Shown: positions 8,972-10,275 of the stretch, one piece after another
Position numbering within the stretch: position 1 is the stretch's first letter
Layout: the number at the start of each line of letters is the position of its first letter
Virus record (IMG/VR): IMGVR_UViG_2724679236_000008
DNA length: 64,000 nucleotides
DNA from: a virus
Taxonomy: Duplodnaviria > Heunggongvirae > Uroviricota > Caudoviricetes
Direction: 5' to 3' (one strand)
Made by a program: the position numbers and the translations under genes
Notes under the pieces: model-generated
Seen by the model: the letters and a program-made list of their open reading frames with translations, nothing else
Told to the model about the DNA's origin: nothing
Databases searched by the model: none

Positions 8972-9232
8972 TTATTAACCTCATTACTGGTTGGGAAATA
9001 AGGTTGCGGTGCCGGGTGCCTCCCGGTGTCCTTTGGCTGGTTATCCACCGTGGACGGGGAAAAGGAGAAATTAATGGACTGATATAACCATTTCCCCGCG
9101 TGCGCTTAGCCGCATTCACCGCAATGGTAAGAGCACTTGGCTGGCTGGGCGGCGATGACGCCTGTACGCATTTGGTGATCCGGTTCTGCTTCCGGCATTC
9201 GCTTAATTAGCCAAATACTCTTAACGTTGCGC

Positions 9233-9319
9233 TGGTGGAGAGTAATGGAATCGAACCATCATCGCTTGCGCAATGGGACGGTTTTCAAGACCGTTTGAGC
9301 ACCATGCTCCCTACTCTCC
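9233..9319 (-). tRNA. class II (long variable arm) tRNA with UGA anticodon, tRNA-Ser-like; atypical D-arm
   Basis: rc GGAGAGTAGGGAGCATGGTGCTCAAACGGTCTTGAAAACCGTCCCATTGCGCAAGCGATGATGGTTCGATTCCATTACTCTCCACCA: 7-bp acceptor, canonical anticodon arm ACGGT-CTTGAAA-ACCGT (as in E. coli serT), T-loop GGTTCGATTCC, CCA. Confidence 0.45.
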
Positions 9320-9551
9320 GGCCGTTGTGGTGACCGGTACTGAATCTCCGGCATACGGTGCAGCCAATTAGGACTACGGACGATCACCGCTCGCGAAAGG
9401 GAAGATTTGCGGCCGCATTTCCCTAACATCCAAGAAAGCTATCGCATCAGTCTGCGAATCCACCACAACGGAAAGAGCATTTATGGCTCGCATCGCGGGA
9501 AAAAGCCCACGGTAGAGAGTCGAACTCTACAAATACTCTTACCTGTTGTGC

Positions 9552-9614
9552 TGGTGCCGGTTAACGGATTCGAACCGCTGAGCTACACCATCACTTGCCG
9601 GGTACGTCTCCGGC
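9552..9614 (-). other. tRNA-Thr-like remnant (T-arm plus acceptor 3' end with CCA; D/anticodon region missing)
   Basis: rc ...GTGTAGCTCAGCGGTTCGAATCCGTTAACCGGCACCA; 3' end resembles E. coli tRNA-Thr (...ATCGGCACCA) but no complete cloverleaf can be drawn. Confidence 0.3.
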
Positions 9615-10258
9615 GAGGGCTTCCACCTCCGTATGCTTTTCGGCGCACCGCGCCCTGGCTGCAATTCGGTAACAGGGGATGCATAACCCTGGCTTCCAGC
9701 GTGATTAGCGCTTTCAGCATGACGGGATATACCCGTGATTGAAACTTTAATGGACCAATGTGAAACACATATGCTGTTACGCCGAATGAAAAAGGACGTA
9801 ACAGGAAAGGGCACTGACCAAAAGATGGCCCCCTTCTCGCTCATCTGGTTAATCGAACCAGCGCCCTTGCCTGTTATGCCTCCCCGTTCCCTAATACACA
9901 GACGGGGACACTCTGCGGTCGATTTTTTGACGGGGGACGACTCATACCCCGTGGCGTCAGGCTTCTTAGGCCGCTACCATCATCAGATCATCGTTTGCAT
10001 TTACTTTAATGGTCAGTTTCTAAACCGCCGCAAAGTCGCTAACCATGACGAAAACCCTGAAAAAACGCCCACCCGAAGATGGGCAAACTGGAAGCTCGTA
10101 ACGCACTTCGGTGTTGCCACTTAGGCGCATGGTCAACCTGGCAACTCGGTGGTTTGTCTGGGAGGACTAGACCCAGCCATGCTTACCGCCGCGCCTGTCG
10201 CGGCTAACAGCTAAATCGCTCTATAAATCACGATTCATTGAGGCAATATTACACTAAT

Positions 10259-10275
10259 AAATTTATTAGAGCAAT
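10259..10275. promoter_or_regulatory. C1-type operator AAATTTATTAGAGCAAT heading the minus-strand tRNA/tci/ban operon
   Basis: Exact reverse complement of the P1 C1 operator consensus ATTGCTCTAATAAATTT as recalled from memory; overlaps dmt stop codon. Confidence 0.55.

Follow-up and report, generated by a model that had tools for sequence, protein, structure and literature searches.

The closest described counterparts of the locus reported here are the transfer RNA (tRNA) clusters in the ban leader of phage P1 (trnA, trnT) and its variants P7, D6, SJ46 and RCS47, which occupy the same site between dmt/Oban and tciA, on the same strand and with flanks 93-96% identical to those of the plasmid studied here. 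More widely, the tRNA cluster of phage T4 encodes stable non-tRNA RNAs, and the large, ornate RNAs GOLLD and ROOL adjoin phage tRNA genes. Here we describe positions 8972-10265 of a 64,000-nt stretch of Caudoviricetes DNA (IMG/VR record IMGVR_UViG_2724679236_000008; the whole stretch is called the window), which on the minus strand reads as the untranslated leader of a C1-repressed ban operon. Our preferred reading, to which we assign a probability of roughly 0.8, is that this leader is a modular tRNA island that has suffered a single 170-bp deletion and is processed at long hairpins. Its order is a terminator-ended proximal segment, an element with a short peptide-tag reading frame (the tag element), long hairpins, tRNA genes and modules resembling the small RNAs STnc100 and PasD, and such modules occur in many unrelated Enterobacterales phages too. 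Along the minus strand the features of the leader are as follows.

10248..10275: Oban, the bivalent C1 operator (formerly Op72a/b), overlapping the ban promoter at the start of the leader (inverted repeat I2)
10060..10240, minus strand: promoter-proximal leader, the 'dicF-like' region of P1 (P1 annotation and 93% alignment)
9880..10056, minus strand: tag element resembling transfer-messenger RNA (tmRNA), ~175 nt (weak tmRNA_permuted match, homologs, covariation)
9800..9875, minus strand: long hairpin A0, after the tag element (fold -36.1 kcal/mol, z-score -3.5)
9551..9591, minus strand: dead chimeric tRNA remnant, 41 nt (alignments to P1, D6, P7 and the sibling plasmid)
9464..9550, minus strand: long hairpin A1, directly after the CCA of the remnant (fold z-score -6.0)
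9323..9473, minus strand: module B1, of STnc100 architecture, ending 3 nt before the serine tRNA (inverted repeat I5)
9233..9319, minus strand: class II tRNA-Ser(UGA), tRNA-Sec-like or 8/4 type (ARAGORN)
9120..9231, minus strand: long hairpin A2, directly after the CCA of the serine tRNA (fold -45.7 kcal/mol, z-score -4.5)
9005..9123, minus strand: module B2, STnc100/PasD-like, directly upstream of tciA (Rfam RF02076)

The deletion, the long hairpins and the small-RNA modules

The stretch 8972-10265 is 100% identical to pEA4_97, an IncY P1-like phage-plasmid of Escherichia albertii BIA_4, and positions 8100-10400 are ~95% identical to phages P1, SJ46 and JL22. The list of open reading frames (ORFs) and the P1 annotation together give the minus-strand order dmt, Oban, leader, tciABC, trnI, ban, dbn, so that, as in a P1-type ban leader, the C1 operator pair is followed on a single strand by leader, tciABC, trnI, ban and dbn; dmt ends at 10266, tciA starts at 8971, and ban runs from 7914 to 6544 with dbn behind it. 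The C1 operator sequence ATTGCTCTAATAAATTT lies on the minus strand at 10275-10259 and an imperfect second copy on the plus strand at 10248-10264, and the homologous P1 site carries the annotation Obanab/P1ban. Operator pair and gene order both agree with a preliminary description of this DNA, which had placed it in the leader of the C1-controlled ban operon.

Intact genes for tRNA-Asn(GUU) and tRNA-Thr(UGU) stand at the place of the remnant in P1, SJ46, D6, P7, 813R1 and locus L008, while other relatives have Asn-Tyr-Thr or Arg-Tyr-Thr there. Over the whole locus, P1, SJ46 and 813R1 have Asn and Thr; D6, P7 and L008 have Ser in addition to these two; Ro157c2 has Tyr besides Asn and Thr; and L010 has Arg, Tyr, Thr and Ser. 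The gene-strand sequence of the remnant, GATGGTG TA GCTC AGCGGTT followed by CGAATCCGTT AACCGGC A CCA, joins some 21 nt from the start of tRNA-Asn, up to and including a repeat, to a Thr-type T-arm, acceptor 3' strand and CCA. The repeat at the junction is 9 nt long and reads TCAGCGGTT along the genes and AACCGCTGA on the plus strand (9573-9581); it occurs once within the D-loop of tRNA-Asn and once within the T-arm of the tRNA-Thr-like gene next to it. The sibling plasmid pEA36_1, 99.8% identical, is 170 bp longer at the remnant, and excising the DNA between its two repeat copies gives the window sequence with 2 mismatches. An 82-nt junction probe was contiguous in one of the 468 matching plasmid records, and that one is the source plasmid itself.

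The two halves of the remnant are colinear with trnA and trnT of P1, D6, P7 and the sibling, as expected of a tRNA pseudogene. Its acceptor strands, GATGGTG on the 5' side (Asn) and AACCGGC on the 3' side (Thr), are unpaired, it has no anticodon arm, and the tRNA finders do not detect it. Because the two acceptor strands cannot pair, the remnant cannot be a tRNA; the private junction, the non-complementary acceptors and the missing anticodon arm mark it as the dead by-product of a single recent microhomology deletion. As judged from these alignments, one recent 170-bp deletion between the 9-nt direct repeats made the remnant and removed most of both genes.

The 'tRNA-Thr' of the undeleted siblings is itself abnormal (L007 ~1585-1715, minus strand; NZ_CP117651.1; NZ_CP117630.1). 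It is 133 nt long, with intact acceptor, D and T arms and with ~59 extra nucleotides, including a UUCG-capped hairpin, in place of the anticodon arm. This variant, which is called by neither ARAGORN nor Rfam, is the source of the remnant in the window.

The preliminary description had reported at least three tRNA fragments here and placed three of them, each taken as a T-arm with an acceptor 3' end. We scanned the whole 64 kb with a strict T-arm pattern (5-bp stem, G53-C61, loop TTCRANN) and found 4 matches, all on the minus strand, at 8223, 9260, 9529 and 9579, whereas shuffled sequence gave 0.21 on average and never more than 2. Two of the four are genuine tRNAs and the other two are fragments 1 and 2, which the rarity of the pattern in shuffles shows to be real and not chance. 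Fragment 1 (9552-9591) does consist of a T-arm, acceptor 3' end and CCA, and is the remnant just described; fragment 2 (9512-9530) is a real T-arm-like hairpin, yet it belongs to a conserved spacer hairpin; and fragment 3 (~9845-9870), with a 4-bp stem and a 9-nt loop, does not match the pattern. None of the three is a complete tRNA, since ARAGORN calls only two tRNAs in the whole window (8196-8271 and 9233-9319) and the Rfam tRNA model has no match at 9551-9591, 9512-9530 or 9845-9870 at E-values up to 10.

Every RNA unit of the leader is directly followed by a long hairpin, with the consensus GCRCAAC..TAAGAGTA in the 5' arm and TGCTCTTWCC..TTGYG in the 3' arm. The stem of A0, 17 bp long, pairs AACAGG-c-AAGGGCGCTG with CAGTGCCCTT-t-CCTGTT, the stem of A1 pairs CACAAC-a-GGTAAGAGTA with TGCTCTTTCC-GTTGTG, and the stem of A2 pairs CGCAAC-GTTAAGAGTA with TGCTCTTACC-ATTGCG. 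A2 is further supported by direct repeat D2 of the trailer motif and by the motif scan, and the sequence that follows tRNA-Ser in rV5-like phages matches it with 82% identity. The long stem covaries, GGTAAGAGTA/TGCTCTTTCC here standing against GGTAAGGGTA/TACCCTTACC in P1 and D6, and so do the copies within the leader (CACAAC/GTTGTG against CGCAAC/ATTGCG). The same hairpin modules are 75-90% identical in unrelated phages, always in non-coding tRNA regions, and the phages that share them include CobraSix, CMS-2020a, the N4-like IME11 and the Ackermannviridae phage UPM2146. In CobraSix (L011 569-642) a match to the small RNA isrJ (62.6 bits) lies just downstream of a Q-like antiterminator gene and upstream of a tRNA and spacer module.

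Fragment 2 is GTAGAG-TTCGACT-CTCTAC, a strict T-arm match in the upper part of A1. With the same loop, the stem becomes GTAGGG/CCCTGC in CobraSix and TCAGAG/CTCTGA in CMS-2020a, and since these changes are compensatory while the loop is kept, they suggest a maintained structure and not a decaying one. Fragment 3 (9847-9859) sits within the upper part of A0, where P1 has GGTGTGATTAACC and the window GGTTCGATTAACC, 2 nt apart. In the minimum-energy fold of A0 the 5' half of this fragment is taken up by the 17-bp long stem and its supposed T-stem, CTGG/CCAG, is left unformed; as these bases pair in the long stem and P1 differs, fragment 3 is not a tRNA remnant. In L087, L106, P1 (L001 ~3990-4095) and D6 (L003 ~4110-4200) the long hairpin encloses both a D-arm-like GCGA-CGTCGGAGA-TCGC and a T-arm, AGGG-TTCGAAT-CCCT, and these copies resemble a tRNA without anticodon arm set on a 16-17 bp stem.

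The two remaining modules resemble small RNAs. B1 is closed by an 11-bp stem, 100% complementary and formed in the fold, that pairs CCGTTGTGGTG with CACCACAACGG, and its conserved motifs recur in IME11, UPM2146 and CMS-2020a. B2 matches RF02076 at 36.4 bits (E-value 1e-5) over positions 31-147 of the 206 in the model, short of the gathering score of 47; its homolog in UPM2146 matches at full length with 47.0 bits, equal to that gathering score, and the B2 stretch is 95% conserved in P1. STnc100 and PasD are Hfq-associated prophage small RNAs (bioRxiv 10.64898/2026.05.13.724894; PMC12370729).

With these parts, the leader would work as follows. Once C1 repression is lifted, the ban promoter would transcribe the long leader, from which host RNases would cut the tRNA and the small RNAs (the STnc100-like RNAs and the tag element). 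The cuts would fall at the long hairpins and at the tRNA ends, with the long hairpins probably serving as double-strand processing or punctuation sites.

An alternative is that the T-arm-like hairpins, and perhaps the chimeric remnant too, are selected tRNA mimics, either bound by enzymes that process or modify tRNAs or forming stable small RNAs of the kind of Y RNAs or the T4 'species 1/2'. The T-loop TTCGAMT stays constant across phages while its stem covaries, the copies in P1, D6, L087 and L106 pair a D-arm-like hairpin with a T-arm inside the long stem, and the relatives of STnc100 are Hfq-bound small RNAs (bioRxiv 10.64898/2026.05.13.724894), all of which would suit such a role. However, many long-hairpin copies have no T-arm, among them those of P7, Ro157c2, IME11 and UPM2146, a free acceptor end is lacking, the chimera is private to one plasmid, and no Rfam family gives a match. 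We therefore regard mimicry as unlikely, if still the most serious competitor to a modular island with one deletion.

The tag element

The tag element is the part of the leader most worth following. It consists of a 5' helix (GUUUU/GAAAC), a conserved UUUAGAAACUGACCA, the tag frame, a stop-codon hairpin and two H-type pseudoknots.

9966..9998, minus strand: tag reading frame GCA AAC GAT GAT CTG ATG ATG GTA GCG GCC TAA, encoding ANDDLMMVAA and a stop

As in a tmRNA, the frame opens on the resume codon GCA, has no start codon and closes with a hydrophobic, Ala-rich C-terminus; 8 codons upstream of it stands an in-frame TAG. The 71 copies that we compared, from phage and viral-contig loci, contain 13 distinct tags, all exactly 10 codons long and of the form A-N-[D/E]-x-x-x-[L/M]-x-[A/V]-A, with one copy ending in AP. 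Identical tag peptides are spelled with third-position variants (GCC/GCG/GCT, CTG/TTG). Because RNAalifold on a MAFFT alignment, in which two subtypes were misaligned, gave a partial structure, the helices were parsed sequence by sequence, and this parse revealed compensatory changes in four of them.

Stop-codon hairpin: UGGU/GCCA, CUGA/UCAG, CUGG/CCAG, UGAU/AUCA
First pseudoknot, stem: CGGGG/CCCCG, CAAGG/CCUUG, UGAGG/CCUCA and others
First pseudoknot, pairing of loop with downstream sequence: CCGA/UCGG, GUCG/CGAC, CCAG/CUGG
Second pseudoknot: several wholly different stems; second pairing CGCACU/GGUGUG against CGCAUU/GAUGUG

Compensatory changes are thus found in both downstream H-type pseudoknots. 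Upstream of the tag only the helix GUUUU/GAAAC was found and no pseudoknot; this helix is local, the 5' end of the element not pairing with its 3' end.

A distant blastn search found homologs of the element in 289 phage records from many families, where it is almost never annotated. The phages are P1-like, Ackermannviridae, N4-like Schitoviridae, Drexlerviridae and other siphoviruses, and their hosts are Escherichia, Salmonella, Klebsiella, Serratia, Cronobacter and Aeromonas. In bacteria the element is present, again unannotated, in 670 of 5,426 complete E. coli genomes (~12%), with 568 plasmid and 151 chromosomal sites. Three siphoviruses have a consensus promoter, TTGACA-17-TAGATT, ~10 nt upstream of the element and tRNA genes after it, so that the element is predicted to begin the transcript of a tRNA array there. 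One lambdoid prophage has it in the non-coding stretch that separates the Q antiterminator gene from the holin gene.

The Rfam model tmRNA_permuted (RF04321, cut-off 47) matches homologous places in the window, IME11 and UPM2146 with 24.1, 33.1 and 22.1 bits; in these three sequences there was no match to RF00023 and none to any tmRNA model at its curated score. No tRNA-like domain (acceptor stem, G3-U70, T-arm, CCA) was found in or next to the element, and ARAGORN was negative at all loci. A blastn search of the 5,426 E. coli genomes with the tag element did not pick up the host ssrA, and we found no description of such an element in open-access papers and preprints. A scan of viral contigs with a 14-mer pattern returned mostly unrelated bona fide tmRNA tags and chance matches, with ~10 relevant loci. 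Many of the IMG/VR loci L017-L136 show tags that look like those of genuine tmRNAs (ANDNFAPSGYALAA and ANDERFALAA, for example) and whose upstream context differs; the tmRNA genes in question may be carried by phages or belong to flanking host DNA. On the opposite strand, 'hypothetical proteins' have been called over the tag element in L002 (4170-4487, plus) and L010 (2377-2637, plus), and the window has an ORF at 9735-10124 (plus); the pattern of RNA conservation makes these ORFs probably spurious gene calls.

Taken on its predicted structure, the tag element resembles the mRNA-like domain of tmRNA with its pseudoknots and lacks what defines a tmRNA, so that it may be either a tmRNA derivative or a convergent mimic. 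Tentatively, and with more doubt than confidence, we suggest that it is a functional tmRNA derivative which has lost its tRNA-like domain and lies 5' in strongly induced phage leader transcripts. Its placements would then be the P1 ban leader, the gap between Q and holin genes of lambdoid prophages, N4-like phages and Ackermannviridae, and, behind its own promoter, the region upstream of siphovirus tRNA arrays. Such an RNA might disrupt host trans-translation or ClpXP tagging, take its place or turn it to phage use, possibly as a decoy that draws in factors binding to the mRNA-like domain of tmRNA or as a template for altered degradation tags ending in VAA, MAA or AVA. It would be a new class of phage RNA, unannotated in hundreds of phages and in ~12% of complete E. 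coli genomes.

A stronger proposal would be that the element is a true phage tmRNA, in one or two pieces, that is charged with alanine and adds tags of the ANDDLMMVAA type to nascent proteins. The resume context of tmRNA type, the constant 10-codon tag, the stop codon in a covarying hairpin followed by two covarying pseudoknots, and the weak matches of three tmRNA-family models at homologous places are all in keeping with this. It is nevertheless very unlikely, for the element has no acceptor stem, G3-U70, CCA or canonical T-arm, ARAGORN does not call it, its 5' helix is local, no partner acceptor piece appears in the three promoter-defined phages, and every Rfam score is under the gathering score. 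In a search for a two-piece tmRNA, the three promoter-mapped phages were scanned for T-arm motifs with a complement of the 5' end of the element behind them, and this returned ordinary tRNAs only.

Erosion, artefact and the rest of the locus

The preliminary description had read the fragments as a tRNA cluster being eroded. Members have indeed been lost in this plasmid, but through one recent 170-bp deletion and not by gradual decay. Gradual erosion, leaving at least three independent pseudogene fragments, could draw on the T-arm-like sequences in the fragments, on strict T-arm motifs far above chance and on relatives with more tRNAs. Against it, the single deletion explains fragment 1 and the 99.8% identical sibling keeps the undeleted DNA; fragment 2 has compensatory changes and stands beside intact tRNA arrays in CobraSix, CMS-2020a, L008 and L010; and fragment 3 differs by 2 nt from P1 and sits in a conserved 17-bp stem. 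This view is therefore largely refuted already, and we hold it to be highly improbable. The loss of tRNAs is in itself ordinary, the region being already known as variable among P1-like phages. Least credible of all is the view that pEA4_97 has intact tRNA genes after all and that its record lacks the 170 bp through an error of assembly or sequencing. The junction does occur in one public plasmid record only, between flanks with a short repeat in common. But nine repeated nucleotides are far too few to make a modern assembly collapse, and the rest of the leader differs by 2 nt from the sibling, which points to independent, consistent assemblies.

Several observations weigh against our own reading of the leader as a modular island processed at its hairpins. 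The minimum-energy fold of A1 does not contain the T-arm-like hairpin, part of the covariation is between paralogous copies and is weaker than covariation among orthologs would be, and it is only the position and length of the long hairpins that suggest a role in processing. For the tag, synonymous and non-synonymous changes number 7 and 8, which is not decisive, and a profile of the tag element aligned with E. coli ssrA matches the tag alone, in the correct register, with 8.7 bits and rank 2 of 2,001 including shuffles.

The spacers of phage tRNA islands are conserved, covarying RNA modules shared across unrelated families, neither junk nor tRNA debris, and point to a common processing or regulatory grammar of tRNA-island transcripts. 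Were the tag element functional, it would make a connection, undescribed so far, between phage development and either ribosome rescue or tag-directed proteolysis, and would offer tmRNA biology a natural variant with the mRNA-like domain only. The surviving tRNA-Ser appears to belong to a rare tRNA-Sec-like class, whose A73 here could change its amino-acid identity.

The tRNA-Ser(UGA) is predicted to be intact and survives the deletion. The class II tRNA with UGA anticodon and odd D-arm that had been noted before is confirmed by ARAGORN at 9233-9319 (minus strand), with a D-stem of 4-5 bp and a loop of 3-5 nt. It has a normal anticodon arm (CUUGAAA loop), a good T-arm, A8, and a short D-loop on a lengthened D-stem, the D-arm GAGC(A)/(U)GCUC with its loop of 3-5 nt being of the tRNA-Sec-like kind; the variable arm is long, with a 6-bp stem and a GCAA loop. 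The best model is Rfam tRNA-Sec (43.1 bits against a cut-off of 47), the general tRNA model giving < 29 bits, and the gene stays under the Rfam tRNA gathering score at all loci examined. Conserved copies occur in D6, P7, several plasmids and an rV5-like phage, YP-6, whose variable-arm stem carries compensatory changes. Cloverleaf energies are -29.2 kcal/mol for the 7/5 form, -32.6 for 8/4 and -31.6 for 9/3, all of which pair fully, and no covariation at positions 8/9 or 49/65 separates the three. The (8/4) tRNA-Ser or allo-tRNA class, which is tRNA-Sec-like, has been reported in phages by Mukai et al. 2017 (PMC5389517), and on its predicted fold our tRNA-Ser fits this class. The discriminator (9236) and position 9294 are A73 and A27 in the window, L007 and L009, and G in all other relatives (G73 in D6, P7, L008, L010, CMS-2020a and YP-6), so that the window has neither G73 nor U73. 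The importance for SerRS of having G73 or U73, as cited (PMC5389517), makes the amino-acid identity of the A73 tRNA-Ser uncertain, and the change may alter the charging synthetase or the amino acid.

At the other end of the leader, ~170 nt downstream of the ban promoter and directly before the tag element, the terminator scan found a strong terminator-like hairpin (10066-10088, minus strand; TGCCCATCTTCGGGTGGGCG followed by TTTTTT), a possible attenuator or 3' terminus of a short leader RNA. Despite the 'dicF-like' label in P1, the DicF covariance model had no match in 7900-10400 at E-values up to 10. The CAU tRNA that had been placed within the 1.3 kb of the leader in fact lies ~700 nt outside it, downstream of tciABC, and is P1 trnI. 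An Rfam scan of the window, with matches to C4, its targets and sok RNA, confirms a P1-like phage-plasmid; these are the expected immunity and addiction features of P1. The further features of the window are the following.

8546..8971, minus strand: tciA, encoding a TerB-family protein, first protein gene past the leader (ORF list; annotations in P1, SJ46 and pEA4_97)
8196..8271, minus strand: tRNA with CAU anticodon, P1 trnI, tRNA-Ile2 (ARAGORN; Rfam tRNA model, 61.4 bits; P1 annotation)
30330-30415, 30483-30535 and 26086-26259: C4 antisense RNA, a1/b1 targets and sok antitoxin RNA (full-score Rfam matches)

Comparison with known systems

Like tmRNA (SsrA), the tag element has the resume codon GCA, a tag of the type A-N-D...A-A with the length of that of E. 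coli, an A-rich stretch before the resume codon, a stop codon in a hairpin and pseudoknots after the tag. Unlike tmRNA, it has no tRNA-like domain, no CCA and no upstream pseudoknot, only the two downstream ones, measures ~175 nt against 363 and sits in phage leader transcripts; it also escapes ARAGORN and every Rfam family at gathering score, and has no blastn link to host ssrA. The modules B1 and B2 share with STnc100 and PasD the start made of UGGUGAAU plus a hairpin, the closing stem ending in CACCRCA and the site in phage leaders near tRNA genes (bioRxiv 10.64898/2026.05.13.724894; PMC12370729). They differ in that the copies in the window lie under the family cut-off, cover part of the model and are known here from sequence.

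The serine tRNA is near-identical in sequence to the genes of D6 and P7, and its oddity had already been remarked in D6, whose annotation reads 'apparent UGA serine anticodon but amino acid not called by tRNAscan-SE'. With the (8/4) class of Mukai et al. it shares the long variable arm and the short D-loop on a longer D-stem, and the 8/4 form is possible and slightly the most stable, while its A73, found also in two sibling plasmids, sets it apart from the G73 of all other relatives. The T4 RNAs, GOLLD and ROOL are alike in being structured non-coding RNA among phage tRNA genes, but hosts and sizes differ, and neither GOLLD nor ROOL, both of which are in Rfam, has a match in the window.

The P1-type ban-leader clusters stand nearest. 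Their Asn and Thr genes are the parents of the remnant, and the present plasmid differs from them in that both genes are non-functional through its private 170-bp deletion. It also carries, in common with D6 and P7, the Ser module at the place where P1 has upl/plp; plp of P1 (L001 3748-4125) overlaps the 3' end of trnT (4096-4171) and the long hairpin after it. This exchange of upl/plp and Ser module, with the repeated trailer motif at its bounds, marks a recombination hot spot.

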